Shown: positions 238 through 53,071 of the stretch, in pieces
Layout: every line of letters starts with the position of its first letter
How positions within the stretch are numbered: the first letter of the stretch is position 1
DNA from: Bdellovibrionales bacterium
Lineage (GTDB): Bacteria > Pseudomonadota > Alphaproteobacteria > UBA9219
Direction of reading: 5' to 3'
Assembly: GCA_041649025.1 (NCBI GenBank)
Contig: JBAZNY010000001.1
Location: forward strand, 8,207-72,206
DNA length: 64,000 nt
Program-made: the position numbers and the translations under genes
The notes under the pieces: generated by a model
What the model saw: only the letters and a program-made list of their open reading frames with translations
What the model was told of the DNA's origin: nothing
Databases searched by the model: none

Positions 238-1955
238 GCCTGAGGTCGTTCAAACGTGCAGATGCCGCATTTCAGCATCCAGCCGAAGCAACGCCATAAC
301 AGGTCATGACTGTCATGAGGAAAAGCAGCCAGAATATCCTGAATTCTAGCGGCTCCGGCGCGGCGGATGACAGCAATCAGTTCCAGGAGTTGATCCTGAG
401 ACAACAAAAGCTGAGGCACAAAAAGGTTCATGCCGTGGCTCATAAGAACATTAACTTCCTTAGGTTCCATAACAACGCGCAATATATCGGTCGGTGTAAG
501 ATGCGTTGTGGGGAAGCTTCTGAACATTTGCCAAGGATTTGGGTAGCCGGGATGCATGGCTTGCCAGTTGTCGGGCAGGGAGCGGCATTGAGGCGCGGCT
601 TGGCGCTGTTCCGAAAGGGTTTTCCATAAATCGTCATAGGCACGAATAATATGTCGCCAATCAAAAACATTCTGCGCGCGCGTTCTTCCGTTTTTGCCGA
701 AGGTCTGACGTAAATCGGCATCACTAATAAGAACGGCATATGATTTTGCACACCATTCGATGTCGACGCCCGTGCTTTGAGAGGCTCCCGCAAGCGCTAC
801 GCCGTAATTATTTTCGTTGTAGTACATTTGCGCAATAGCCAGTCCTGCAGAAGGAGGCGGGGTCGTAACAGGGATCAAAAAGCCTTCTGAGCCATTTTGA
901 ACACCTTCGCGATAGCCGTCCCAATCTGTAATGACTGACGGCAACCCGCAAGCCATGGCCTCGATCGGCGTTAAGCCGAAGCTTTCCTGAACATTATCGG
1001 AGAGGGATGTAAAAATATCCGCCGCCGCCCATAAACCCTCGGGAAAACGCGGGTCGTCATTCATAACAAATTCAGCTTTGACTGTTTTGCAGATATCGAC
1101 CGCGAGATTCCGGAAATGGGGTTCCATATCCTTTGGTTTGAAATAACCGAACATCACAAGGCGCACGTTGCGTCCCGTAAGCTTTGCAGCTCGTTCCGCC
1201 GCCAAGAACATTGGCAAAGGATGCGCTTTGGTGGCAAAGCTCAAGCGTCCCACGAAGAGGATAATGATTTCATCTTCCATTGCGCCCAAAGCCTTACGTT
1301 GGGCTGCGCGTTTAGTTGGTGTTGTAAGACCCGCAAATTTTTCGCTATCAATGCCGAGCGGAATGATGGGGGTCTGTACGGGACAGGAAAAAGCACCGCC
1401 AAAACGATGGTTAAGATAGTCGCTATGTATTTTCCATAAATTACGTACGGCATCCCGAATAGCCGCCGAAGGACAGATCAATGCATCTGTACATTCGCTT
1501 GGGGCAAAACATAGGTCTCCAACCGCTTTTGCAATGCGCTCTCCGCTCATCGTATGGACAAGACCGCAGGCCGCAAAACCACGCCCATGTACCTGTTGTC
1601 GCTGCCAGATGAGATCGGCAATTAGGGGATCGGGGCGAAAGAGACATGAAATACTTTGGAGATTTTTATCAGGATGGCGGGGATCAAGCCCAATACAGCG
1701 TTTTTCAACGTCGACGCCTTCGGCGACGGCAATTTCCTTAAAATGGTCAAAACTCGGAAAATCGGTAGGGCGGCATATGAATTGCTGCGCATCGCTATGG
1801 CGGAAATAGGCTGAAAGAAAGCGGGTAACGGCAACATCGAAACCAAAGACTTCGCTGTCATTTTTACCGGAGGCAGGGCGGCTATATTGGATGCAGATCG
1901 ACATGAAAAACCGGGGAAAGGTAAATTTTATGACACGCTTGCCGGATGCGCACAA
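234..1955 (-). CDS. Glycosyltransferase family 4 (GT1-fold) protein with a C-terminal extension of about 150 aa
   Basis: The central region has the GT4 hallmarks ...FVGRLSFATKAHPLP... and ...ESFGLTPIEAMACGLPSVITDWDGYREGV... (E-x7-E-like). It is 573 aa if the first Met is used; the true start may be an internal Met. Confidence 0.65.
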   Translation of the reverse strand: MCASGKRVIKFTFPRFFMSICIQYSRPASGKNDSEVFGFDVAVTRFLSAYFRHSDAQQFICRPTDFPSFDHFKEIAVAEGVDVEKRCIGLDPRHPDKNLQSISCLFRPDPLIADLIWQRQQVHGRGFAACGLVHTMSGERIAKAVGDLCFAPSECTDALICPSAAIRDAVRNLWKIHSDYLNHRFGGAFSCPVQTPIIPLGIDSEKFAGLTTPTKRAAQRKALGAMEDEIIILFVGRLSFATKAHPLPMFLAAERAAKLTGRNVRLVMFGYFKPKDMEPHFRNLAVDICKTVKAEFVMNDDPRFPEGLWAAADIFTSLSDNVQESFGLTPIEAMACGLPSVITDWDGYREGVQNGSEGFLIPVTTPPPSAGLAIAQMYYNENNYGVALAGASQSTGVDIEWCAKSYAVLISDADLRQTFGKNGRTRAQNVFDWRHIIRAYDDLWKTLSEQRQAAPQCRSLPDNWQAMHPGYPNPWQMFRSFPTTHLTPTDILRVVMEPKEVNVLMSHGMNLFVPQLLLSQDQLLELIAVIRRAGAARIQDILAAFPHDSHDLLWRCFGWMLKCGICTFERPQA

Positions 1956-2021
1956 TATAATCTTGTGTTATACCGAGGTTTCGCGGATTCTTCACAAAAG
2001 ACGATTCGAAAGGGCGTTTCC

Positions 2022-2774
2022 ATGAGCATTTCTTTTATAAACGCTTTGACAGAGTACTGGACTCCGCAAGAGATTGCCACAAATGTTGGCGCAATTTTTA
2101 ATATTTTTATCGCGTTGCTTTTGGGGCTTTTGGTTGGGTACGAGCGCTCTTACCGCGGACGCGCTGCCGGTATGCGCACTTATGGCCTTGTATGTATGTC
2201 CTCATGCGCTTTTGTCGTTCTTTCGGCTCATCCGGAAACATGGTTCGGTGGACGATCTCTTGAAACCTTAAAGTATGTAGATCCGAGCCGCATTATTCAG
2301 GGAATAACGACCGGAATTGGTTTTCTGGGCGCGGGCGTGATTATGCGCGATGGATTGAGCATCAGCGGGCTGACCACAGCCGCATCAATATGGACGGTAT
2401 CTGCTATTGGCGTTCTTGTTGGTATCGGATTTTATGGCGCTGCAATCACGTTATCCCTCTTGGCGGCTATTTTCATGATGTGGGGGGCAAAAATTGAGGA
2501 TTATTTGCCCGTACGTCATGCCCTTTCAGTAACGCTTCTTTTTCATAAGCAAGTCGAACTTACGGAAACAGAGGTTTTTCAATTAATTCGTTCATATGGA
2601 TATGAGGTGGCGAGAGGCTCGTTTTCTATCAACCAGACATCGGGTCAGATAGAGTGGCGTTTTGTTGTTGTCTCGCAAGGAAAACGAAAAGGGGCTACAC
2701 TGGTAAAACTAAGCGAAGGATTAAGAAAAACTGCGGGTATTCAGGATTTCAAGGTTTCTCATGCGCGAAACTGA
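2022..2774 (+). CDS. mgtC: MgtC/SapB family membrane protein
   Basis: The motif LLLGLLVGYERSYRGRAAGMRTYGLVCMSSCAFVVLS is typical of MgtC. The ORF runs from 1887, but Met46 at 2022 gives the usual length of about 250 aa and avoids overlap with the divergent gene. Confidence 0.75.
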   Translation: MSISFINALTEYWTPQEIATNVGAIFNIFIALLLGLLVGYERSYRGRAAGMRTYGLVCMSSCAFVVLSAHPETWFGGRSLETLKYVDPSRIIQGITTGIGFLGAGVIMRDGLSISGLTTAASIWTVSAIGVLVGIGFYGAAITLSLLAAIFMMWGAKIEDYLPVRHALSVTLLFHKQVELTETEVFQLIRSYGYEVARGSFSINQTSGQIEWRFVVVSQGKRKGATLVKLSEGLRKTAGIQDFKVSHARN

Positions 2775-2804
2775 TAAGACGTCTTCACATTTTGGAGGAT
2801 CAAA

Positions 2805-4091
2805 ATGAGAGTTTTAGTTGTAGGCGGCGGCGGACGCGAACACGCAATTTGTAAAGCGATTGTTAAGTCGCCTTTATGCGACAAACTGTTTTGCGCTCCA
2901 GGCAATGCGGGGATTGCAGACTTAGCGACGTGCCTTCCGGTAAAAACTGACGAAGTCAAGAAAATCGTAGCTACGGCTCGTGAACATAAAATCGATTTTG
3001 TTATCATTGGTCCGGAAGTTCCTCTTGCTCTTGGTCTTGTTGACCAATTAGTCGCGGCGGGAATTACCTGCTTTGGCCCCAGCAAACTGGCGGCAGAATT
3101 GGAGAGCTCCAAAGGTTTTATGAAGGATTTGTGTACTAAAGCTGGCGTGCCGACGGCAAAATATAAACGCTTTAGAGACGTTGAAGATGCGCGAGCGTAC
3201 GTTTCAAAACAACAGGGCCCAATTGTCGTTAAAGCCGACGGCCTTGCTGCGGGCAAAGGCGTTACGATTGCAAGCACAGTCAGTGAGGCAATTGCGGCCG
3301 TTGATGCTGCAATGGTTGGCCAGGTTTTTGGCCCATCGGGCGCTGAAGTTGTGATTGAAGACTTTATGCAAGGCGAAGAGGCCAGTTTTTTTGCGCTATG
3401 CGACGGGAGAACGGCGCGGTTTTTTGCTTCGGCTCAGGATCACAAGGCTGTCTTCGATGGTGATAAAGGACCGAATACCGGCGGTATGGGAGCCTATTCC
3501 CCTGCGCCGATGATCGACGAAGGGATGAAAGAGCGCATTATGCGCGAGATCATCATCCCTACGGTTGAGTATATGAAAAAAGAAGAGCGTCCCTTCACCG
3601 GTGTTCTTTTTGCCGGGTTAATGATGACAAAAACGGGGCCAAAACTGATCGAATACAATGCCCGTTTTGGGGATCCGGAAGCGGAAGTCATGATACCTCG
3701 CCTGAAATCGGATTTGCTCGCGCTATTGTACGCCTGCAGCCAAGGCAAGTTGGATAAAGCCGTTATGGAGTGGAATGAGACAGCGGCACTGGGCGTTGTT
3801 ATGGCAGCGGACGGATATCCGGGAAATTATTTAAAAGGCAGTGTTATTCGGGGCATTGATTATGCGGAAGCTATCCCGAATGTTGCCGTTTTGCATGCCG
3901 GTACATCGCGTAATGCGCAAGGGGAAATTACAGCTAACGGGGGGCGTGTTTTGTGTATAACCGCCGTTGCCCCTACGGTTGCGGAGGCGCAAAAACTAGC
4001 ATATCAGGCTGTCGAGCGAATTGACTGGCCGGAAGGCTTTTGCCGTCACGACATCGGTTGGCGCGCTATTGCAAGAAAAAGAGGCGCTTAA
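2805..4091 (+). CDS. purD: Phosphoribosylamine--glycine ligase
   Basis: The start MRVLVVGGGGREHAI and ATP-grasp motifs throughout are PurD-like, at 428 aa. An AGGA RBS sits at 2791-2797. Confidence 0.95.
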   Translation: MRVLVVGGGGREHAICKAIVKSPLCDKLFCAPGNAGIADLATCLPVKTDEVKKIVATAREHKIDFVIIGPEVPLALGLVDQLVAAGITCFGPSKLAAELESSKGFMKDLCTKAGVPTAKYKRFRDVEDARAYVSKQQGPIVVKADGLAAGKGVTIASTVSEAIAAVDAAMVGQVFGPSGAEVVIEDFMQGEEASFFALCDGRTARFFASAQDHKAVFDGDKGPNTGGMGAYSPAPMIDEGMKERIMREIIIPTVEYMKKEERPFTGVLFAGLMMTKTGPKLIEYNARFGDPEAEVMIPRLKSDLLALLYACSQGKLDKAVMEWNETAALGVVMAADGYPGNYLKGSVIRGIDYAEAIPNVAVLHAGTSRNAQGEITANGGRVLCITAVAPTVAEAQKLAYQAVERIDWPEGFCRHDIGWRAIARKRGA

Positions 4092-4166
4092 AAAGCTGTT
4101 TTTCTTTATCAAATCCTTGGACGCCGCGAATTATTTTTGTTATCCCTGACGCCGTTTCTACAGCGT

Positions 4167-4243
4167 GGGCCTGTAGTTCAGTTGGTTAGAACGCACCGCT
4201 CATAACGGTGTTGTCGCAGGTTCAAGTCCTGCCGGGCCCACCA
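4167..4243 (+). tRNA. tRNA with a CAU anticodon, elongator Met-like
   Basis: GGGCCTGTAGTTCAGTTGGTTAGAACGCACCGCTCATAACGGTGTTGTCGCAGGTTCAAGTCCTGCCGGGCCCACCA forms a cloverleaf with a 7-bp acceptor stem, D-loop AGTTGGTTAGAAC, anticodon loop CTCATAA, a T-arm GGTTCAAGTCC and an encoded CCA. Met versus Ile2 (lysidine) cannot be decided by eye. Confidence 0.85.
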
Positions 4244-4260
4244 TTTTTCGACCTGTGTTG

Positions 4261-5100
4261 TTATCCGCCGCCGTAACTTTGGATCAAGCTGCCGCAGACG
4301 AGATACCAGCCGTCTACGAGCACAAAAAAGATAATTTTAAATGGCAGGGAGATAATAGAAGGCGGCAGCATCATCATGCCCATCGACATCAGAATGGAGG
4401 CGACAACCATATCGATGATCAAAAACGGCAGGAACAGCAAAAACCCGATTTCGAAGGCGCGTCGTAATTCTGAAATCATAAAGGCAGGGATCAAGGCGCG
4501 GAGAGAAACATCGTCTTTAGCTTCCTCAGCTTTGGCGGGGGCGGCGTCTTTTTTTGCTGCGGGGACGGCTTTTTCCGCATTTGGCGTTTTTGCCGCGGCT
4601 GCTGCGGCTTCGTTGGCTTTGCTGACTTCCACGAATAAAGCCAAATCCTTCGATCGTGTGTGCTTCAACATAAATTCTTGAATGGGCTCCACGGTGCGCT
4701 CAAACGCCGTTTCTTCGTCAATTTGATTATTCATAAATGGACGTATACCGCTTTCCCAAGCTCGATCAAAAGTCGGTTGCATAATGAACATCGTCAAAAA
4801 CAGAGCAAGACTAATGAGTACGATATTGGGAGGCGTCGTTTGTGTGCCTAATGCGGTTCGCAGGAAGGCCAGAATAACAATAGCGCGCGTGTAGCTTGTA
4901 ACCATCACAAGAATGGATGGCGCTAAAGACAGAACGGTCACAAGAATGACGGTTTGCACAATACGCGCTGTTGCCGAAGGACCTTGTCCCATATCGAAGT
5001 GAATGGATTGTGCGAAGGCCTCGGTTGAAGTAAAGGCGACTCCAAGAGCAATCAGTATTCCAGCAAGGAACAAAGCCAAAAATTTCAACGAACGCTTCAT
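4261..5100 (-). CDS. fliP: Flagellar biosynthesis protein FliP
   Basis: It has a signal peptide and conserved FliP blocks (...LRTALGTQTTPPNIVLISLALFLTMFIMQPTFDRAW..., ...LIPAFMISELRRAFEIGFLLFLPFLIIDMVVASILMSMGMMMLPP...). It also has an Ala/Lys-rich insert of about 35 aa. Confidence 0.9.
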   Translation of the reverse strand: MKRSLKFLALFLAGILIALGVAFTSTEAFAQSIHFDMGQGPSATARIVQTVILVTVLSLAPSILVMVTSYTRAIVILAFLRTALGTQTTPPNIVLISLALFLTMFIMQPTFDRAWESGIRPFMNNQIDEETAFERTVEPIQEFMLKHTRSKDLALFVEVSKANEAAAAAAKTPNAEKAVPAAKKDAAPAKAEEAKDDVSLRALIPAFMISELRRAFEIGFLLFLPFLIIDMVVASILMSMGMMMLPPSIISLPFKIIFFVLVDGWYLVCGSLIQSYGGG

Positions 5101-5396
5101 GAAATATCTTGTGTTTTGACGGGAGGGAGATTCGCTTCGACGACTATATCGTTTTGATCGCCTAAAAGAAGCAAATGTTCACGTTCGTCGCAACGCACAA
5201 TGACGCAGCGATGTTTTGTATCGAGAAGGAGGCTTTCGACAACTTTCAGCCTTCGTGCACGCTTTTCCTTTAAGGCAAGCATGAAGCCACGTGCATTAAT
5301 GTACTTTAATATGCCGCCAAGCCCCGCCATAAGCCCTAACACAACGCAAAAGGCGAGAATGACGCGTAACCAGGAAATATCAGAAGGATCGGTCAT
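5097..5396 (-). CDS. fliO: FliO-like small single-TM flagellar export component
   Basis: It is 99 aa with one TM helix (WLRVILAFCVVLGLMAGLGGIL) and sits immediately upstream of fliP, translationally coupled to it by a 4-bp overlap. Confidence 0.5.
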   Translation of the reverse strand: MTDPSDISWLRVILAFCVVLGLMAGLGGILKYINARGFMLALKEKRARRLKVVESLLLDTKHRCVIVRCDEREHLLLLGDQNDIVVEANLPPVKTQDIS

Positions 5397-5677
5397 TTCT
5401 GTGCGCTTCTGACCGTGGTTGTATGAAGGGCAGTCATATGGGTTTCACAATCATTGAGCTTTTGGAGGAGTTCGCCAAGTTTTATTAAACAGGTTTCCTG
5501 AATATCCAAAGGAGCGCCCTCTACATTAGAACACAAATGCGCGATTCTATCATCCAGATCAACGACATCAGGCATGTGCCCTTCTTGAAGAATCTCATGA
5601 ACGGCTTGAAGATAAGCGTCAATGGATTCAAATTCTTGAACTATTGATTCCGTCCTTATGCTTGAAAGAGCGGGCAT
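5393..5677 (-). CDS. Hypothetical acidic 94-aa protein inside the flagellar operon
   Basis: The ORF overlaps both neighbours, by 4 bp and 1 bp (coupled). No motif is recognised; it could be a chaperone-like or FliJ-like protein. Confidence 0.35.
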   Translation of the reverse strand: MPALSSIRTESIVQEFESIDAYLQAVHEILQEGHMPDVVDLDDRIAHLCSNVEGAPLDIQETCLIKLGELLQKLNDCETHMTALHTTTVRSAQK

Positions 5678-12204: not shown

Positions 12205-14886
12205 AGCCTTGATTGGCAGAGTAACGATGATGTTGGTTCCAATTCCATCCTCACCTGTTTGTGCGCTAATATGCCCCTGGTGTGCTTCGATAAAGCCACG
12301 GCAGATGGAAAGGCCTAGCCCCGCGCCTGCTATAGAGCCCACTTCTGATGTATCCTTATTAATTCTATAAAACATATCAAATACGCGTTGTTGCTCACCT
12401 TCAGGAATGCCAATACCGCGATCGCTGATGATAGCTTTAATAAAACTTCCTTCTTGCTGCACGGTAATTTTTATTGGTTGATCGGGCATGGAATAAGAGC
12501 AAGCGTTCTCAATTATATTGATAAAAACACGCCGCAAGGCGGAAGCATCGGCCTCGATGAGAGGCAAATTTTCGGGACAGTCAAAAATGACTTTGCGGTT
12601 CTTAAGGCTTCGAACAAGACGCGCCATAGCCAATTCAATTACATCACGCAAACTCATTAATGCTAGGTTATAGTTCATGTTTCCGGTAACGAGTTCGGTC
12701 ATATCCAAAAAGTTTTCAATAAATCTATCAAGACGATCCGATTCCTGCTCGATATGAAAAACCAAGGCAAGCCGTTGATCTGCGGAAATTTCGTTCCAAT
12801 CGTTACTTAAATTTCTAGATGCTTGAACTATTTTGTCTAAGGGCGCGCGCATATCGTGACTGACAGAAGAAAAAAGGCTTGTGCGAAGCCTTTCCATTTC
12901 CGTTTGCAACCGTGCTTGTGCAACGTCCGTGACTAGTTTGGCCCGCTCGATGGCTGCGGCAGCTTGATAGGTTAAACTAGAGAGAAAATTGTTTTGTGTT
13001 GAAGTCAGGGCGCTCCCATCCTTTGTTTTGATAGCAATAACCCCAACGATGTTCGCGCCTGCTTGTAAGGGTAAACCGTAAAAGGGAGCTCCTGGCAACG
13101 TATCGGATTGAAATCCTGCCGGTTTGTGATGTCTCCACGCCCAATCCATCGCGGCATTTGATGCCGTATCCAATGTTAAATCAGCTGGAATTGAAGCTAC
13201 AATATTCAGCCTTTCATTATGAGGCATTAGGATAGCGACATATGCGCCCATTGTTGTTGCCACGCGTCTTACAGTTGCTTGGGAGACGTCGTCAATCGTT
13301 GCCGCTGCAGCAATGCTTTTTGTAAAATCATAGAGAGCTTGTGTGCGATCTGCATGGCGATGCGTAATATTGATCTGAAGGCGCACGCGGTTAGCAATAA
13401 AACTCGTCGCAAGGCAAATTGCAATAAAGAAGAACAACAGAACGCCATCTTCTTCTCTCTGTGGAAGAAGAGAGAAATTTGGCGCTGTTATAAAGAAATT
13501 TAACGCAAAAGCGGATAAGAACGTTGCAAAAAGAGAGGCAATAAAATCAATATCTAAAGCAACCAGGAGAACGGCGATTAAAAACAATAAAGACAGCGAT
13601 ATTGGTTCAGCGATAGGGGCTGACGCATAGGCCACTAGATAGGCAAAGCCTACAATAAAAAGCATTTTGCCAAAAGAAAGCCAGGAAAATTTCCACGAAG
13701 ATGTTTCGGAAATACTTGTTAATTTTTGGGTATCAGAGCTTCGTATTCTCCCCTCCAAATTGTTGATCAAAAGAAGATCAAAACCTTCGCCATTCTTGAT
13801 GAGTGCGTTTGAAACCGAGGGTTGTAAGAGACGCGACCAAAGAGACCGAAGTGATTTGCCAACAAGGATCGTGTTAACATTGCGTTCTCGAGCAATACGC
13901 AATATTTCACCGGAAATGTCTTCGCTTGCAACAGTCATCGTTTCTGCGCCCATGCTTTCGCCCAGTGCAAAAGCTTGTGAGATATTATTGTGCGCCTTTT
14001 CCGGCAGGGCTCTATGACGGCCGGTCTCTATGTGTAGAACGAACCAGGATGCTTTCCGCCGTTCTGCGCTGCGTTTCGCGGCGCGAACTAAAGGAACGGC
14101 TTGGTTATCATCAGAAATACAGACCATAACGCGGTTACTTGTTGGCCACGGTCCCGAAATAGCATGACGGCGCATTAAATCCGTCATCTGTTGATCGACG
14201 CGTTCTGCTGCTTGCCGTAGGGCCAGCTCGCGCAGTGCCGTTAAATTGCTCGGTGTGAAAAAGCGATTAACGGCCAACCGCGCCTGCTCTGGAATGTATA
14301 CTTTTCCTTCTTTTAATCGTTGCAAAAGCTCATCAGGCGGCAAATCGATTAATTCAATGGCATTTGCCATTTGAACCATACTATCCGGAACTGTTTCTCG
14401 AACTTTGACGCCGGTGATACGGGTGATGACATCATTCAAGCTCTCAATGTGTTGAACGTTAAGAGTTGTATAAACATCAATTCCGGCATCAAGGATTTCT
14501 TGTACATCTTGATAGCGTTTTGGATGTCTAGCGCCCGGAATGTTGGTGTGAGCCAGTTCGTCGACCAAAACGAGCTTTGGTTTGCGCTTCAAAAGGGCAT
14601 CCAGATCCATTTCCTCAAAGCTTAGTCCGCGATAATTAAGTTTTTGCCTTGGAATAACCTCGATACCCTGTGCCAAGGCTAGCGTTTCGCTACGTTGGTG
14701 CGTTTCAACAATGCCGATAATAGTGTCAGTCCCATCGCCCAATTTGGACTTCGCAGCGTTAAGCATCGCAAATGTTTTGCCAACTCCTGGTGCTGCGCCC
14801 AAAAAGATTTTCAATTTACCAACGTGTTCGCTTTTAGCTTCTTTAAGCAAAGCGTCTGGAGAAGGGCGTATTTCTTCGTCTGTCAT
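12193..14886 (-). CDS. kdpD: Sensor histidine kinase KdpD
   Basis: It has the N-terminal KdpD domain (GAAPGVGKTFAML), Usp, a TM bundle, the HisKA H-box (...SHDMRAPL...) and HATPase_c. It is 897 aa. Confidence 0.95.
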   Translation of the reverse strand: MTDEEIRPSPDALLKEAKSEHVGKLKIFLGAAPGVGKTFAMLNAAKSKLGDGTDTIIGIVETHQRSETLALAQGIEVIPRQKLNYRGLSFEEMDLDALLKRKPKLVLVDELAHTNIPGARHPKRYQDVQEILDAGIDVYTTLNVQHIESLNDVITRITGVKVRETVPDSMVQMANAIELIDLPPDELLQRLKEGKVYIPEQARLAVNRFFTPSNLTALRELALRQAAERVDQQMTDLMRRHAISGPWPTSNRVMVCISDDNQAVPLVRAAKRSAERRKASWFVLHIETGRHRALPEKAHNNISQAFALGESMGAETMTVASEDISGEILRIARERNVNTILVGKSLRSLWSRLLQPSVSNALIKNGEGFDLLLINNLEGRIRSSDTQKLTSISETSSWKFSWLSFGKMLFIVGFAYLVAYASAPIAEPISLSLLFLIAVLLVALDIDFIASLFATFLSAFALNFFITAPNFSLLPQREEDGVLLFFFIAICLATSFIANRVRLQINITHRHADRTQALYDFTKSIAAAATIDDVSQATVRRVATTMGAYVAILMPHNERLNIVASIPADLTLDTASNAAMDWAWRHHKPAGFQSDTLPGAPFYGLPLQAGANIVGVIAIKTKDGSALTSTQNNFLSSLTYQAAAAIERAKLVTDVAQARLQTEMERLRTSLFSSVSHDMRAPLDKIVQASRNLSNDWNEISADQRLALVFHIEQESDRLDRFIENFLDMTELVTGNMNYNLALMSLRDVIELAMARLVRSLKNRKVIFDCPENLPLIEADASALRRVFINIIENACSYSMPDQPIKITVQQEGSFIKAIISDRGIGIPEGEQQRVFDMFYRINKDTSEVGSIAGAGLGLSICRGFIEAHQGHISAQTGEDGIGTNIIVTLPIKASMV

Positions 14887-46476: not shown

Positions 46477-47751
46477 ATGACAAAGCCAACGACCCCAGAT
46501 TCAAAAAACACGCTTTACTGCTCCTTCTGCGGTAAAAGCCAGCACGAGGTGCGTAAGCTGATCGCTGGTCCGACTGTATTCATTTGCGATGAATGCGTCG
46601 AACTCTGCATGGACATTATCCGTGAAGAAAGCAAAACGACGCTTACCAAGTCCAAAGAAGGCGTTCCATCGCCGAAAGATATTATGGCGATCCTCAATGA
46701 TTATGTGATTGGCCAAGATCACGCCAAGCGTGTTTTGTCGGTTGCGGTGCATAACCATTACAAACGGTTGGCTCATGGTGCGCGCAGCTCGGATGTTGAG
46801 TTGGCAAAATCGAACATTCTTTTGGTGGGGCCGACCGGTTGCGGCAAAACGCTTTTAGCGCAGACATTGGCGCGCATCATCGATGTGCCGTTCACGATGG
46901 CCGATGCGACAACATTGACTGAAGCCGGCTACGTCGGTGAAGACGTCGAAAACATTATCCTCAAGCTGCTTCAAGCCGCTGATTATAACGTCGAACGCAC
47001 TCAGCGCGGCATCGTTTATATTGATGAAATCGATAAAATCAGCCGTAAATCGGACAATCCTTCAATTACCCGCGACGTTTCTGGTGAAGGCGTGCAACAG
47101 GCTTTGCTTAAGCTGATGGAAGGGACGATTGCCTCTGTTCCCCCACAAGGCGGTCGCAAGCACCCGCAGCAGGAATTTTTGCAGGTTGATACGACTAACA
47201 TATTATTTATATGCGGCGGCGCGTTCTCCGGACTTGAAAAAATTATTTCAGCTCGTGGACGCGGCAGCTCGATAGGTTTTGGCGCTGATGTGCGAGGCCC
47301 CGATGAGCGTCGTACGGGGGATATTTTGCAGGGAACGGAACCGGAAGATTTGTTGAAATTCGGCCTCATCCCTGAATTTATCGGACGTCTGCCCGTCATT
47401 GCGACGCTTACGGATCTTGATGAAGCGGCGCTCATCGATATTCTGACGTCGCCCAAGAATGCGCTTGTCAAGCAGTTCCAACGCTTGTTTGAAATGGAAG
47501 ACATTAAGCTTGAGGTTGATAATAATGCACTAAAGGCCATTGCTAACAAGGCCATTGCCCGCAAAACAGGTGCGCGCGGTCTGCGTTCAATTATGGAAGG
47601 CGTCTTGCTTGATTCCATGTATGAACTTCCAGGAACAATGGATGTTGAAAAGGTTCTTATTACTCAAGACGTTGTTGAGGGCAAATCGAAGCCCATTTAT
47701 GTTCACGGCGAAAAACGTGAAGGTACGTCCATGGCCGCTGCCAAGGCGTAA
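46477..47751 (+). CDS. clpX: ATP-dependent Clp protease ATP-binding subunit ClpX
   Basis: C4 zinc finger ([11 protein letters not shown]...CDEC), Walker [16 protein letters not shown], Walker [11 protein letters not shown]; 424 aa. Confidence 0.95.
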
Positions 47752-47772
47752 CGACGAAAGGGAGGCTGTTTT

Positions 47773-48147
47773 ATGCCGGAAAGCCTTATGCGCGCGAAAA
47801 TCAAGGAAGCTTTGGCGGCGACGGGTCAAAATCGACACGACGCTCACAAGCTCCTTATCACATGGGCTGTACGCGATCCCGCATTGCTCTTGGCAATGAC
47901 CAAACCTCATCTCAAAGCGATAGCCACGGGGCATATCGACCATTATTTGAGGCTTACCTCTGACAACAATGTGGACGATTCAAGCCCCGAAAAACTATCG
48001 CGTTCTGCCATCGACGATATCGTCTCATCGTCGCGGCTTCCCTCTGACAGGCGTCAAAATCCGGCAGTGCCTCCGCCAAAATCGACCGAACGCCAGGCTT
48101 CGACAATGCGCAAATTAGCCGCAGCGTTTACGAGGAAGAAGAAATAA
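47773..48147 (+). CDS. Hypothetical protein (124 aa, basic C-terminus)
   Basis: An ORF immediately downstream of clpX with no recognised motif. Confidence 0.35.
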   Translation: MPESLMRAKIKEALAATGQNRHDAHKLLITWAVRDPALLLAMTKPHLKAIATGHIDHYLRLTSDNNVDDSSPEKLSRSAIDDIVSSSRLPSDRRQNPAVPPPKSTERQASTMRKLAAAFTRKKK

Positions 48148-48153
48148 ACGCAG

Positions 48154-48570
48154 ATGAAAAACGCGAAAAAGACCGTCGGCGATTTTATCGATCGGCTTAG
48201 TGTTTGCGTTATGACTTCCGTCGATAAAGACGGTTTTCCTCATACAAAAGCCATGCGCCCGAGAAAAAGGGACGGCATTAAGCATATCTATTTTTCGACA
48301 AATGCCTTGTACGATGGAACAGAGCGTTATCTGGAAAATCCGAAAGCTTGTGTATATTTCTTTACAGAAGATAAAGCTGTTTTGCTTATCGGAACAATGG
48401 AAGTGTTGAGCGACAAGGCTTCCAAAAAAATGATCTGGAAAACCAGCGACGAACAATATTACACAAAAGGCATGGATGACCCTGACATCCGCGTTTTAAA
48501 ATTTACAGCACAAAGCGGAAGATATTATGGTGACGGCGAATCCGAGGATTTTGCAGTGGAGTTAACCTAG
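48154..48570 (+). CDS. Pyridoxamine 5'-phosphate oxidase-like (FMN-binding split-barrel, general-stress-protein-26-like)
   Basis: It is 138 aa and the pattern ...VCVMTSVDKDGFPHTKAM......ACVYFFTEDKAVLLIGTMEV... matches the PNPOx-like fold family. Confidence 0.55.
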   Translation: MKNAKKTVGDFIDRLSVCVMTSVDKDGFPHTKAMRPRKRDGIKHIYFSTNALYDGTERYLENPKACVYFFTEDKAVLLIGTMEVLSDKASKKMIWKTSDEQYYTKGMDDPDIRVLKFTAQSGRYYGDGESEDFAVELT

Positions 48571-48574
48571 CCGT

Positions 48575-48690
48575 ACGACGAATTAATTACTCCACGTCTC
48601 CCAATCTCTTTTCGAGATTCGAGAAGCGCGTGAACTGTCCATCGACGTGCAGCTTGATCGTGCCGATGGAATTCCGGGGACACAATACTT
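48575..48690 (-). repeat. Left (attL-like) direct repeat: a displaced, diverged copy of the dnaB 3' end
   Basis: A 45-nt stretch (48587-48631) is identical to the 3' terminus of dnaB including its stop, followed by about 58 nt at about 80% identity. The reverse strand encodes ...PRNSIGTIKLHVDGQFTRFSNLEKRLGDVE*, against ...RHGPIGTIELHFDGQFTRFSNLEKRLGDVE* in the real dnaB. Confidence 0.8.
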
Positions 48691-48935
48691 AATGACTGTC
48701 AAATTTGCGGAAAATGGTTAAAGAGGAACTGCCGAATTGAGGTGGCGGACTCCTTTTGCTGCCGAAAAATGAGGATGTTCTATATTTGTGGTTAAGAGGT
48801 GAGCAGAAAAAACTCTCCATATTCTTGGGAACAGGAGGGTTTTTATGCATAGAAAGTATTTTAATCACAGACTCTGGTCTGGAAGATCAGTAAAGATAGA
48901 GCCTTATAAGAATCTGGCTTTGCCATAATGCGAAT

Positions 48936-51263
48936 ATGAAAAACCGTTTGGAAATTATTACTGAAGCCGTTTCTCGCGCCCTTAAGGATGGCACGTTATC
49001 GCCTGGACGGCCTCTTAACGTTCCACAGAAGGAAGCTCTTAAGGGGTATCTTGCTTTTTTATCATCGCCGAACAGTCCCGAAGACCTCAGCCGCGCTTAC
49101 GTCGACATGGCAACAGGCACCGGAAAGACCGGATTGTTCGCTGTCATAACGCGCTATGCCCATTTGGTTGCACAGGAGCGGGGACAAGGGGAACATTTCA
49201 AAACAATCATCGTCGAACCAACTACACTGCTTCTGGAGCAGACGAGGGACGAACTTGCAACGGTCATACCCGAACTCAAAGAGGATATCGGCATTTATGG
49301 CGGCGGAAGCAAAGAGCTTGGTCAGCCTATCACGATTATGACTTACGACGCGTGGGTTGAGCTTTTCGAAAGCGGCCAGATGCGCGCCGAAGATATCGGA
49401 CTGCATATTACGGACGAGGCTCATTATGGGCTATCTGTGCGTCGCCAGCAGCTCATGAATGATCGCATGGCAAACACTGTTCATTTTGGTGTGACGGCAA
49501 CGGCTGAATACGATCAGGAAAAGACGCTTGAACTGACTCATCGCAATATGGTGTATCACATCGGTATAAATGAGGCGATTGAACAGGGCTTTTTATCCGA
49601 ATATGCACATGTTCAGTATGCAATCATGCGCGTTGTACCGTCCTTGACCGATCCCGCGAGAACGGACATCGATAATAAAGAGAAATTGGTATTCAAGAAG
49701 CAGGAATGGTCTCGAATGGTGGTTAGTACCTATGCCACCATGGAAGACGGAATTAGCGGGCAACCACTCTCCGATAAGATTGCCATTTTCTTTGCTGCTG
49801 ACACCCGCCACGCCGATGATCTGGCTGAGGAACTGAATAAAAACGATGACCTTCAGAAGAAAGCTCGCGCCAACGGTTTTGATGGCGTGGCTATTTCGGT
49901 ACATTCAGTAGGCCATAGCAGCGCGGAACAGAACCGTCGGCTCGAAGCTTTTAAACAGGGCCGCTATATGGCCGTAGTGGGCGATCAAAAATTCAAGGAG
50001 GGTTTTAATTTTCCGCGGGTTAAGTTCATAGCAAGCTATCCCGGAAACTCTTTAGTCGATACTGTTCAAAAATTGGGGCGCGCCATGCGTTCGTGGACCG
50101 CCCCTCACACCTCAACGCCCCAGGGAACGGTTATTCTCGAAGCGATCCCCTACATCGGAGATACCGAGCCTGTACTGGATAAGAGATCGCGCAGCTTCGC
50201 AATGGCCCACTGCATTACGGCCTATGACATTCTCAAAGGGACGACGGTCCTTGCTCCTGGGCGAGAGGTTAGGCCATCCCAAAAAACCAGCGGACACAGA
50301 GAGCGGCTCCTTTCCCCAACCTGTACGGTTGAAGTATTCACGACAGATGAAGAAACATTGACCATAAGCCAGCAAATTGATGGTGCTCGGGCTATAGACC
50401 GCACTCCGCTTACGGAAGAGATGATTGCTGAGCTTAAGAACAAAATTGCCGAACATGGCGGCTGGGGAGCTGATTGGTTAGCCAAAGCGGTCGCTCAATA
50501 CGAGCGAGACAACAATCTTCAAGACAGCGGTTTGACGGACGGCAAAATAGTCACCCTTATAAACGGGCAATTGAAAACGTTTGACGCCGAACAATGGAAA
50601 AGGCTGAACGACACCTTGGATTCAATTCCGAAGAGTTCGCTCAATCTGAAGCTCAGACACGCGGGTTCCGGTTCAGGCAAGGTGTGGACCGTTGACAAGA
50701 CAGAAAAGACCCTCCTTTTTGAAAAACAAGACAGCATTTCGCAAAATGAAAGAACGCGGTTCTTTTGGGCAATGATGCTGATGAACCTCGGTGCAGATAT
50801 AACGACAAATCGTGCATCATTATTTTCTCCGCTACGGCCCTCTGAAGGATATTTGGTATCTGCATTTGCGCAGGTCTATCTAGCTTATTGGAAAGCCGCT
50901 CAGCCAAAAAATATTTCCTATCGCTCGGGTCTTCCGACAGACCTAATCATCGATAACTATCCGGAAATGGGAGAGCTTTTTGATGCCTATGCGAAAGCGG
51001 TTATGCGAAGAGGAAAACGAAACGACACAAGACTCGCACTAGGCACAAAGGCCATTCAATCTGGAATGAAGTTTTTGGAGGACTTTCGCTCTTCTTATTC
51101 TTTGGAGATATTCAAGGCGCTCGAAGAAGAATGGATTCAAAAGATTAAAACCCCTGTGGATCAAGCAATCATGCAGACTGTAGATGCAGAATGGGGCGCT
51201 GCGTCAGGCCTCCAGGATCCCATGGCGAATTCTACATCTCTCGTTGTTCCATCGCCGCCATAA
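48936..51263 (+). CDS. SF2 (DEAH-type, ResIII-like) helicase-domain protein with an unassigned C-terminal domain of about 390 aa
   Basis: Motif I DMATGTGKTG, Ia IIVEPTTLLLEQT, II ITDEAH, III TATAEY, a V-like block AVVGDQKFKEGFNFPRVKF and VI QKLGRAMR. The C-terminal half has no motif I can recognise. It is the only gene in the islet. Confidence 0.75.
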   Translation: MKNRLEIITEAVSRALKDGTLSPGRPLNVPQKEALKGYLAFLSSPNSPEDLSRAYVDMATGTGKTGLFAVITRYAHLVAQERGQGEHFKTIIVEPTTLLLEQTRDELATVIPELKEDIGIYGGGSKELGQPITIMTYDAWVELFESGQMRAEDIGLHITDEAHYGLSVRRQQLMNDRMANTVHFGVTATAEYDQEKTLELTHRNMVYHIGINEAIEQGFLSEYAHVQYAIMRVVPSLTDPARTDIDNKEKLVFKKQEWSRMVVSTYATMEDGISGQPLSDKIAIFFAADTRHADDLAEELNKNDDLQKKARANGFDGVAISVHSVGHSSAEQNRRLEAFKQGRYMAVVGDQKFKEGFNFPRVKFIASYPGNSLVDTVQKLGRAMRSWTAPHTSTPQGTVILEAIPYIGDTEPVLDKRSRSFAMAHCITAYDILKGTTVLAPGREVRPSQKTSGHRERLLSPTCTVEVFTTDEETLTISQQIDGARAIDRTPLTEEMIAELKNKIAEHGGWGADWLAKAVAQYERDNNLQDSGLTDGKIVTLINGQLKTFDAEQWKRLNDTLDSIPKSSLNLKLRHAGSGSGKVWTVDKTEKTLLFEKQDSISQNERTRFFWAMMLMNLGADITTNRASLFSPLRPSEGYLVSAFAQVYLAYWKAAQPKNISYRSGLPTDLIIDNYPEMGELFDAYAKAVMRRGKRNDTRLALGTKAIQSGMKFLEDFRSSYSLEIFKALEEEWIQKIKTPVDQAIMQTVDAEWGAASGLQDPMANSTSLVVPSPP

Positions 51264-51309
51264 ATTTATTATCCGACCGCTCGGCAGGGGTGGTTTGCGC
51301 GCCAATTCA

Positions 51310-51460
51310 GCCTATAGCTTGAGTCACAGGCTATAGGTTGAGAAAAGGGCCGAATAGACAGCTTATAGTTCAAAAAAAACACGAATATTCAAACTATAGT
51401 TCAAGAAAATCGGAAAATACCGATTTTAATAAATGCCAAAAAACTCAGGCTATAACCTTA
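51310..51460. repeat. Block of five iteron-like 12-mers (YTATAGNTYRAR) in direct orientation
   Basis: CTATAGCTTGAG (51312), CTATAGGTTGAG (51331), TTATAGTTCAAA (51363), CTATAGTTCAAG (51394) and the degenerate CTATAACCTTAG (51450), in AT-rich DNA between the helicase gene and the right repeat. Coordinates are ±1. Confidence 0.5.
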
Positions 51461-51552
51461 GGCAAATTCTAGGGACACGTGTAAAACTCTGGGAGAAAAT
51501 AATCGTGGACTGACGGGAGCAAAAGCAAAGAAGTCGCTTGAGAAGATAGAAA

Positions 51553-51669
51553 TGACAACGAATGCTTACTCCACGTCTCCCAATCTCTTTTCGAGATTCG
51601 AGAAGCGCGTAAACTGGCCGTCAAAGTGCAGTTCGATTGTCCCAATGGGGCCGTGGCGTTGTTTGGCCA
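51553..51669 (-). repeat. Right (attR-like) direct repeat, the functional 3' end of dnaB
   Basis: The same 45-nt core is followed by the genuine dnaB coding sequence. Similarity to the left copy extends about 12 nt beyond the stop. Coordinates are ±1. Confidence 0.8.
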
Positions 51670-53071
51670 CGAGAATTTCCGCAATGTTTTTGACTTCCTC
51701 GCCGCGCGACATCCAACGGCTATAACGGTCATTAAACCGGCCTTCGTCTTCATCTTGTCGGCGGCTCGGTTCGCTGCGCGCATGATAATATTCTTCGCGG
51801 TAGACAAACATCACGACGTCGGCGTCCTGTTCGATGGAGCCGGATTCACGTAAGTCCGCCAATTGAGGCTTTTTGTCTTCGCGCATTTCAACGGCGCGGG
51901 ATAGCTGCGATAGAGCAAGTACAGGAACATCCAATTCCTTGGCTAACGCTTTGAGACTACGGGTAATTTCAGATACTTCCTGTACGCGGTTTTCCTCGCG
52001 CCTAGTCCCTGTTCCGCGCAGCAATTGCAGGTAATCAATGATAATAAGGCCTAAATTGGGAACCATACGCTTAAGTCTCCGTGCGCGTGTGCGTAAGGCG
52101 GCGACGGAAAGGCCAGGTGTATCGTCGATATAGAGAGGCACGCGCGATAAGATCTGTGATGCTTCGACAAATTTCGTGAAGTCCTCGGTTTTGATTTCTC
52201 CACGGCGGATTTTATCGGAAGGCACGCTGGAAAAATCGCCTAATAAGCGCGTTGCTAATTGTTCGCTCGACATTTCAAGAGAGAAAAAAGCAACACCCGA
52301 TCCTTCGCGTCCCTCGCTTTTAAAATAAGCATGAGCGGCATTAAAGGCCATGTTGGTAGCCAACGCGGTCTTACCCATCGACGGGCGTCCAGCTAAAATA
52401 ACCAGATCTGAACGCTGCAAACCGCCCATCATGCGATCCATGCTGGTAAAGCCCGTCGTGACGCCTGTGATATGGTTGTCGCGTCGATGAGCTTCTTCGG
52501 CAAGCTTGATGGAAACGAATAACGCTTTTTCAAGTTTAACAAAACCACGATCGGTTTCGCCCGTGCGTGCCAGTTCGAACAATTTGGCTTCTGCGGATTC
52601 GATCTGCGATGATGCCGGCTTTTCGAGATCTTGCTGGAAAGCCTCGTTGACGACATCGGTTCCAAGCGATATCAACTGACGGCGCAGATGGAGGTCGTGG
52701 ATCAGGTGCGCGTAATCTTCGACGTTAAAAATCGTAACGACATTGGCGGCCAGATCGACGAGATAGTTTGCGCCGCCGACCGCTGCGAGGGCGGGATCAT
52801 TTTCGAACAAGCCGCGCAATGTCTTGGGATCCGCAATTTGACCGCGATTGATGAGTGTCGCAATCGCGCCATAAATACGGCCATGAACGGGATCGTAAAA
52901 ATGATCTTGTTCAAGAAACTCGCATATTTTTTCATGAACGACGTTGTTGACAAGCAAAGCGCCCAGTAAAGCCTGTTCGGCCTCAATGTTGTGTGGAGGT
53001 GTACGAACGGCGCCAATGGCGTCAGAAGACGAAACGGCGCGCAAAGCTGGAAGATTGGATGAATTTGCCAT
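51566..53071 (-). CDS. dnaB: Replicative DNA helicase DnaB
   Basis: N-terminal domain, Walker A GRPSMGKTALATN, Walker B and RecA-fold motifs (...LIIIDYLQLL...). At 501 aa it has no intein. Confidence 0.95.
   Translation of the reverse strand: MANSSNLPALRAVSSSDAIGAVRTPPHNIEAEQALLGALLVNNVVHEKICEFLEQDHFYDPVHGRIYGAIATLINRGQIADPKTLRGLFENDPALAAVGGANYLVDLAANVVTIFNVEDYAHLIHDLHLRRQLISLGTDVVNEAFQQDLEKPASSQIESAEAKLFELARTGETDRGFVKLEKALFVSIKLAEEAHRRDNHITGVTTGFTSMDRMMGGLQRSDLVILAGRPSMGKTALATNMAFNAAHAYFKSEGREGSGVAFFSLEMSSEQLATRLLGDFSSVPSDKIRRGEIKTEDFTKFVEASQILSRVPLYIDDTPGLSVAALRTRARRLKRMVPNLGLIIIDYLQLLRGTGTRREENRVQEVSEITRSLKALAKELDVPVLALSQLSRAVEMREDKKPQLADLRESGSIEQDADVVMFVYREEYYHARSEPSRRQDEDEGRFNDRYSRWMSRGEEVKNIAEILVAKQRHGPIGTIELHFDGQFTRFSNLEKRLGDVE

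Follow-up and report, generated by a model that had tools for sequence, protein, structure and literature searches.

A putative decayed integrative element carrying a rare helicase gene at the 3' end of dnaB in an uncultured alphaproteobacterium

In streptococci, a route has been described that leads from integrative and conjugative elements (ICEs) or integrative and mobilizable elements (IMEs) to cis-mobilizable elements (CIMEs) (PMC5704250). In Escherichia coli, e14 and phage 21 are inserted in the 3' end of icd; the gene is intact and a short copy of its end, with mostly synonymous differences, is present at the far side of the element (PMC6379469). Here we describe a locus at the 3' end of dnaB, the gene for the replicative helicase, in an uncultured alphaproteobacterium. 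The window, by which we mean the whole stretch of DNA that was analysed, is 64 kb long and has gcrA among its genes; coordinates are window positions, except where another locus is named. Within the window a second, short dnaB end (dnaB') was found to one side of the intact gene, and the sole gene between the two ends encodes a helicase of a rare family (hel775). The reading that we favour, with some reservation, is that this islet is a decayed integrative element of CIME-like anatomy.

The islet holds two att-like repeats and no recombinase, nor does it contain genes for integration or transfer, and its anatomy fits the published definition of a CIME (PMC5704250). It differs from CIMEs that descend from ICEs or IMEs, such as those at the fda 3' end of Streptococcus thermophilus, in that neither a parent element with the same attachment (att) site nor tandem accretion was found. 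CIMEs retain functional attL and attR sites, whereas the repeats of the dnaB islet are att-like by sequence and the assemblies show no excision product, and the host here is an uncultured alphaproteobacterium. With e14 the islet shares its position at the 3' end of a housekeeping gene, the gene-end repeats on both sides of the insert, an intact gene, and a homologous end copy at the far side which differs from the resident end as one functional allele from another. However, e14 keeps its integrase inside the element and supplies a new gene end, the crossover lying at the upstream border of the duplicate. The dnaB islet has no integrase, its sole long identical block lies at the very end of the gene, and the adjoining resident sequence was probably not exchanged. 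Features of this type are well known; new are the dnaB target, the uncultured alphaproteobacterial clade and the rare helicase cargo. A full-text literature search, which was not exhaustive, gave no report of dnaB as an att site.

A repeat search yielded a direct repeat of 83 nt in two copies, 88% identical and 2979 nt apart from start to start (Table 1). The right copy is the true end of dnaB. The left copy translates as (P)IGTIKLHVDGQFTRFSNLEKRLGDVE*, as compared with ...IGTIELHFDGQF... in the resident protein, from which it differs by K for E and V for F. The two copies are identical over the first 45 nt of the repeat (the core), which take in the last 14 codons and the stop; the core has exactly 2 matches and no third copy in the 64 kb, and 0 matches in 100 shuffled sequences. 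It is followed by a diverged arm of 38 nt, of which 28 are identical (74%), so that 0 of 45 positions differ in the core and 10 of 38 in the arm (Fisher P = 2e-4). Past the arm the similarity is at chance level (4 of 20 nt). On the other side, similarity between the copies extends for about 11 nt past the stop codon (8/11, with a 1-nt shift). A preliminary description of the locus had reported a second dnaB terminus about 2.9 kb away in the same orientation, the identical 45 nt with the stop and 14 codons, the K/E and V/F substitutions, and the right copy as the real gene end, all of which we could reproduce. It had also given the next 58 nt or so as about 80% identical; the actual figure over that length is 32 of 58, the similarity being confined to the arm.

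Table 1. Features of the dnaB islet and its immediate surroundings (window positions)
Feature	Position	Strand	Description	Basis
orf124	47773..48147	+	Conserved hypothetical protein, 124 aa; convergent to dnaB in the ancestral arrangement; bounds the insert on the left	Synteny in relatives
PNPOx-like gene	48154..48570	+	138 aa; lineage-specific; outside the repeats, inside the 3.4-kb insert	Pfam, relatives
16-nt spacer	48571..48586	.	Between the stop of the PNPOx-like gene and the stop of dnaB'	Direct reading
Left copy (dnaB')	48587..48669	-	83-nt fragment, last 27 codons and stop of an apparently congeneric dnaB; core 48587-48631, diverged arm 48632-48669	
Left spacer	48670..48935	.	266 nt, non-coding, upstream of the helicase gene	No gene remnant detected
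hel775	48936..51263	+	Intact superfamily 2 (SF2) helicase, 775 aa; sole gene between the repeats	ORF list, Pfam
Right spacer	51264..51565	.	302 nt, non-coding, from helicase stop to dnaB stop	
Motif array	51305..51461	.	Five copies of a partly palindromic motif of about 16 nt (TCARNCTATAGNTTGA) with A/T-rich spacers	
Right copy	51566..51648	-	True dnaB 3' end; core 51566-51610, arm 51611-51648	
dnaB	51566..53071	-	Replicative helicase, intact, 501 aa, DnaB and DnaB_C domains	ORF list, Pfam

The nature of the differences between the copies bears on the origin of the fragment. The 10 differences in the arm fall in eight codons, and 8 of them are synonymous (21% synonymous sites, P = 1.3e-4), with only E/K and F/V altering the protein. 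Because 8 of the 10 changes are synonymous, both arms appear to have diverged inside working dnaB genes, and the fragment is not a drifted local duplicate. At the DNA level the nearest relatives used for comparison were L102 (JGI, DnaB 94% identical) and L103 (a metagenome-assembled genome (MAG) from NCBI, DnaB 93%); among its 83 sites the left copy has 10 differences from the resident end, 8 from L102 and 10 from L103. Protein look-ups were made in a collection of 5.8 billion proteins, in which the nearest DnaB set (n = 18, P0014 to P0031) is 85-94% identical to that of the window. These proteins have K at the E/K position, and E was seen only in the DnaB of the window and in P0017. Only the left copy has V at the F position, F being otherwise invariant. 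By all these comparisons the left copy is most readily taken as a foreign, once-functional, congeneric dnaB end, a fourth such end.

The resident arm is 79% identical to L102, close to the average of 81% for the whole gene. The longest identical runs in dnaB are 33 nt with L102 and 38 nt with L103, and both lie at the end of the gene, in a gene with an overall identity of 81%. This conservation of the last 33-38 nt at the DNA level could reflect an att site, an RNA hairpin between genes, or chance. The core also contains a dyad that can be read directly (AATCTC-TTTTC-GAGATT, 6 bp with a 5-nt spacer, 51582-51598); it is laid out like the core site of a recombinase, and an RNA hairpin between the two convergent genes is just as plausible. 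The earlier proposal that an identical core with diverged arms is the scar of an integration is upheld as far as the foreign coding origin of the fragment is concerned; the part that took the identical core as the mark of the crossover is weakened by the identity with the sister species.

If the crossover took place in the core, the resident arm is native and the arm of the fragment was brought in by the element. In that case the resident gene kept its own arm and nothing needed restoring, contrary to the earlier suggestion that recombination restores the gene. In an e14-like event, the native end would be the fragment, displaced from the gene, and the last 27 codons of the resident gene would derive from the element; the K of the fragment would fit with this.

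Comparison with related genomes was used to delimit the insert. The sequence of L102 aligns to window positions 53540-51565 and then continues straight at 48147-46765. In both L102 and L103 the dnaB stop is followed by 9 nt, the stop of a convergent orf124 homologue and then clpX. The more distant L003 (DnaB 83%) has the same arrangement with a gap of 6 nt between dnaB and orf124, and in L053 (DnaB 75%) the slot is filled by one unrelated ORF of 183 aa. A homologue of orf124, which has no Pfam or NCBIfam match, is the convergent neighbour of dnaB in all four, with an upstream partner that varies (clpX in the window, L102 and L103; rpoC in L053). As judged from these alignments, the lineage-specific DNA runs from 48148 to 51565 and represents one insertion of 3.4 kb relative to the empty site of the nearest relatives. 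From left to right it consists of the PNPOx-like gene, the 16-nt spacer, dnaB', 266 nt of non-coding DNA, the helicase gene and 302 nt of non-coding DNA. The right-hand junction falls at the dnaB stop, and on the other side the PNPOx-like gene separates the repeat from the ancestral neighbour.

In addition, 80 dnaB loci of GTDB relatives (DnaB 55-87%) were scanned, with up to 10 kb of downstream DNA covered. None contained a second dnaB end or a hel775-type helicase downstream of dnaB, the genes found there being housekeeping genes such as murB and uvrB. The only further DnaB-like match, a divergent one, came from a Rhodospirillales MAG (L032, 7580-7669): a C-terminus, 63% identical over 30 aa, that lies some 2.3 kb upstream of dnaB and on the other strand. 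It may belong to a second dnaB-like gene. The duplication and the helicase are thus not shared by the 80 GTDB relatives, L102 and L103, so that the presence in all relatives that the preliminary description would have counted against an integration scar was not observed. The preliminary description had equated the islet with the 2.9 kb or so between the repeats, which falls short of the lineage-specific DNA, and had expected an empty site in which the PNPOx-like gene directly precedes dnaB. An empty site does exist in the relatives, and they lack the PNPOx-like gene as well.

This PNPOx-like gene has a G+C content of 0.42, the lowest of the neighbourhood, its codon usage is the second most deviant in the window, and it was absent from the dnaB neighbourhood in 82 of 82 relatives examined. 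The last 11 nt or so of the spacer between it and dnaB' are similar to the flank of the resident dnaB stop (8/11) and also to the 9-nt spacer of the ancestral arrangement (CGAATTAA in the window, CGGAATAAA in L103), a short and weak match. Bits of the ancestral spacer between dnaB and orf124 can be recognised on both sides of the PNPOx-like gene. These resemblances fit a situation in which dnaB' still abuts the old chromosomal flank and the PNPOx-like gene is a separate small gain in the same slot, the match being too short for proof. The right flank, compared with the ancestral orf124 end, gave 16 of 23 matches in a T-rich stretch, which is not significant.

The 775-aa product of the only large ORF between the repeats matches the Pfam families ResIII (64 bits) and DEAD (42 bits) above cutoff and Helicase_C (20.7 bits) just below the cutoff of 23.5. 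It also matches phrog_16 'DNA helicase' (E = 3e-33). The motifs GTGKT (Walker A), DEAH and QxxGRxxR (motif VI) are invariant in an alignment with nine homologues. The nearest solved folds are the helicase domain of SauUSI, RadD and XPB, with which hel775 shares the ResIII/DEAD and Helicase_C arrangement; it differs from this type in that no nuclease or other effector domain was detected and residues 568-775 have no homologue. In the AlphaFold (AF2) model residues 1-565 are confident, and residues 568-775 have a predicted local distance difference test score (pLDDT) below 50. Residues 489-565 form one family-specific repeat module, and the C-terminal 200 aa or so are an orphan sequence whose only database match is itself. 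The possibility that this C-terminus is a frame-shifted fusion or a gene remnant was rejected, as no homology was found in any other reading frame. Codon usage and G+C content of hel775 are indistinguishable from those of host genes, which fits an old insertion or a congeneric donor. PADLOC returned matches to helicase domains only (PbeA, E = 5e-12, over part of the model) and no partner genes; a known PADLOC anti-phage defence system was rejected, there being no full-length match to a model.

The hel775 family is rare, with 11 matches in the protein collection. The informative contexts are mobile, except for one lone gene (L085). In L084 the homologue is part of an IME-like 13.9-kb island with a tyrosine integrase, a MobA/MobL relaxase and Fic. 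This island is bounded by direct repeats of 50 nt (1-50 and 13879-13928, 94% identical) that resemble the 3' end of a tRNA (T-arm, acceptor, CCA); the contig begins at the repeat, and neither ARAGORN nor Rfam gave a complete tRNA. In L089/L090 the homologue is the last gene of an island with a P4-type integrase, AlpA, a Toprim primase and DUF3631. Elsewhere it adjoins TraI, DotD and VirB11-like type IV secretion genes (L087), lies among rve-type insertion sequence (IS) elements (L086), or adjoins a Rep_3 initiator and ParA in a plasmid-like context (L098). These contexts support the view that members of the hel775 family regularly travel on integrase-bearing islands and on mobile elements of other types, as far as gene neighbourhoods can tell. 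No relative of the helicase was found in viral contigs, and a search of metagenomes with the helicase profile gave only 5 distant loci.

The L084 and L089/L090 helicases are 30-51% identical to hel775 over the helicase core, and the L084 island is bounded, like the dnaB islet, by direct repeats of the 3' end of its target. Both of these islands, 8-14 kb in size, have kept an integrase and a relaxase or primase, which the dnaB islet has not, and the C-terminal modules of their helicases are different from, and longer than, those of hel775. In L085 the homologue (1248 aa, 1700-5670) stands alone between coaE and aroE, which are normally adjacent, and no flanking duplication or other foreign gene was found; this is the second case of a helicase gene inserted on its own, here into a housekeeping operon. 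The members of the family share the helicase core and differ in tandem C-terminal modules. The module is about 80 aa long and present about 8 times in P0001 (L085, 3400-5650), about 86 aa long and present in at least 4 copies in P0002 (L084, 7727-8760, a protein of 1266 aa), and single in hel775, where it is followed by the orphan tail.

Neither in the islet nor in any window ORF of at least 150 aa was an integrase, excisionase or transposase found by Pfam or gene calls, in agreement with what had first been noted for the segment between the cores. The ORFs of that size are housekeeping genes such as kdp, secD, gcrA, clpPX, mfd and mur. A tblastn search of the window with the L084 and L089 integrases, the relaxase, AlpA, the primase and the other island proteins gave nothing below E = 0.07. 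The core was absent from viral contigs, and a 24-nt core pattern had no match in the JGI metagenome collection. It had been proposed to look elsewhere in the genome for a recombinase next to the same core; this was done over the 64 kb, with no recombinase and no third core copy as the outcome. Several other classes of element were considered and rejected. The islet is not an IME, having neither integrase nor relaxase; it is not a transposon or insertion sequence, as it has no transposase and no terminal inverted repeats and its repeat consists of 83 nt of gene sequence that are not fully identical; and it is not an iteron-type plasmid replicon, the array being present and a Rep gene not.

That array, noted before as an iteron-like array beside the one large ORF, was found as described. 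The pattern CARNCTATAG has 5 matches in the window, all inside the array, where 0.43 would be expected. The first two copies form a hairpin of 15 bp (51307-51341, z = -2.7), and the distance from the array to the core is 105-260 nt, as would be suitable for attP arm-type sites or sites for a directionality factor. No cluster of TCARNCTATAGNTTGA-type motifs was present in any other locus collected. The array may be a set of protein-binding sites, for which an operator, an origin of transfer (oriT) and a remnant of a replication origin are equal candidates. Neither spacer has an Rfam match or a remnant of an integrase, promoter-like and terminator-like sites are at chance level in both, and the left spacer has neither a tblastn match to the island proteins nor homology in any other reading frame.

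The same islet is present in three independent metagenomes (ENA ERZ27247363, the source contig, k = 141, 214 kb; Logan SRR8542065; JGI 3300037067), and the hel775 protein is identical in the three samples. Of the JGI contigs, L093 crosses the left junction and L101 the right junction, 100% identical to the window. The Logan contigs stop 30 nt into the core, because an assembler with k = 31 cannot pass a 45-nt repeat. Exact-protein look-ups of DnaB, the helicase, PNPOx and orf124 revealed no empty-site allele within the species, all sites being occupied. The window and L093 are otherwise identical, and differ at 34 positions within 234 nt (47735-47968, 85% identity), 180 nt to the left of the insert. 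This stretch spans the 3' end of clpX, the spacer and the 5' half of orf124. Its differences are mostly in third codon positions, with 3 amino-acid changes, and both alleles are equidistant from the sister species; in sequence it looks like a short homologous-recombination tract from a congener.

The preferred reading, a decayed integrative element, would involve the following events. In the ancestor of the species a circular integrative element, of the integrase-bearing island or IME type, would have recombined into the last 45 nt or so of dnaB by way of an attachment region that was a copy of a sister-species dnaB end. A Campbell-type crossover would have left an intact dnaB on one side and the 83-nt dnaB' on the other. 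Later deletions would have removed the genes for integration, excision and transfer, and the remnant would comprise the SF2 helicase gene, about 570 nt of non-coding element DNA and the palindromic motif array. The PNPOx-like gene would have been acquired separately, in the same small slot. We infer that a site-specific integrase performed the insertion, that the crossover was located in the core, that the array is a leftover attP arm, regulatory site or oriT, and that the helicase was retained because it is useful. The preliminary description had listed a decayed island among its options, and this is the best reading because dnaB' is foreign, the relatives are empty, the helicase family is mobile and no recombinase is nearby.

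Several observations weigh against it. Searches of the islet and the 64 kb gave neither an integrase gene nor a remnant of one, and those for an intact relative of the element at a dnaB end (80 relatives, viral and metagenome scans) were equally negative. The host-like composition of hel775 gives no independent sign of foreign origin, and the lone helicase of L085, which lacks a duplication, indicates that the helicase gene is not always tied to att repeats. Among the three sister species, no part of dnaB is more strongly conserved than the core. Since this conservation extends throughout the genus, the pattern of identical core and diverged arm would be expected from any congeneric dnaB end, and the identity of the core and the Fisher contrast do not by themselves mark a site-specific crossover. 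Finally, the lineage-specific DNA extends beyond the left copy, with the PNPOx-like gene between this copy and orf124, so that a second event is needed.

This conservation of the core has led us to weigh RecA-dependent homologous recombination without any site-specific recombinase, in which a circular or linear piece of DNA from a congener, with a dnaB end beside the helicase, was taken up. It could have entered by a single crossover in the 45-nt stretch, or PNPOx, dnaB' and helicase could have been brought in together by two crossovers, one in orf124/clpX and the other in the dnaB end. The 33-38 nt of identity with L102 and L103 would be a ready substrate, the divergent tract of about 230 nt, 15% diverged and mostly synonymous, just left of the insert argues that recombination with congeners is active here, the 3.4 kb, PNPOx included, amount to one insertion when compared with the empty site, and the codon usage of hel775 is host-like. 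However, 45 nt is about the lower limit for efficient RecA recombination, and a double crossover shifts the problem to the donor, in which dnaB' must first have met a helicase of mobile elements. The link of the helicase family with integrases argues for an integrative origin as well. On balance we consider this explanation unlikely, though to be taken seriously. That the islet is still a working cis-mobilizable element, moved by an integrase elsewhere or by a newly arriving element with the same dnaB att site, seems improbable to us on present sequence evidence. The perfect 45-nt core with its internal dyad in both repeats, the statistically real palindromic array in element-side DNA adjoining dnaB, which would then hold arm-type, directionality-factor or oriT sites, the intact helicase gene and the fit of the anatomy to the published CIME definition (PMC5704250) would all agree with mobility. 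Yet the 64 kb contain no cognate integrase and no third core copy, the three samples have an identical occupied site with no empty allele within the species, the array occurs in no other locus, and the perfection of the core is explained by coding and by conservation at genus level.

A more speculative variant, to which we attach very little probability, would make the 45-nt end of dnaB a dedicated att site of the genus and the 3-kb unit of helicase, array and att a cassette without recombinase that moves in trans; more radically, the orphan C-terminus of hel775 would supply recombination or replication initiation at the array. A local duplication of the resident dnaB end that drifted in place as a pseudogene could account for the V at an otherwise invariant F position, as drift might give. 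It is nevertheless extremely improbable, as 8 of the 10 differences are synonymous, which is not expected of non-coding drift, the left copy has the K of the sister species instead of the resident E, and the differences are distributed 0/45 against 10/38 (Fisher P = 2e-4). An assembly artefact, in which two strains or species were joined at the shared 45-mer, comes to mind with a metagenome contig as source and Logan contigs that break inside the core. Such a break is normal for a k = 31 assembler at a 45-nt repeat, and both junctions were assembled in the k = 141 ENA contig and in JGI L093 and L101, with 100% identity around the junctions; an artefact is hardly tenable.

For annotation, a second dnaB reduced to a pseudogene would be the wrong label for the 83-nt dnaB' fragment, and the small slot that separates orf124 from dnaB varies in content within this clade. 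If the reading as a decayed integrative element is true, the dnaB end would join the 3' ends of protein genes that are used as landing sites by integrative elements, and an element would be able to decay to a single kept gene while its att-like repeats survive. The rare SF2 helicase family, here intact after loss of the rest of the element, would then be a candidate for a function beneficial to the host, such as defence.

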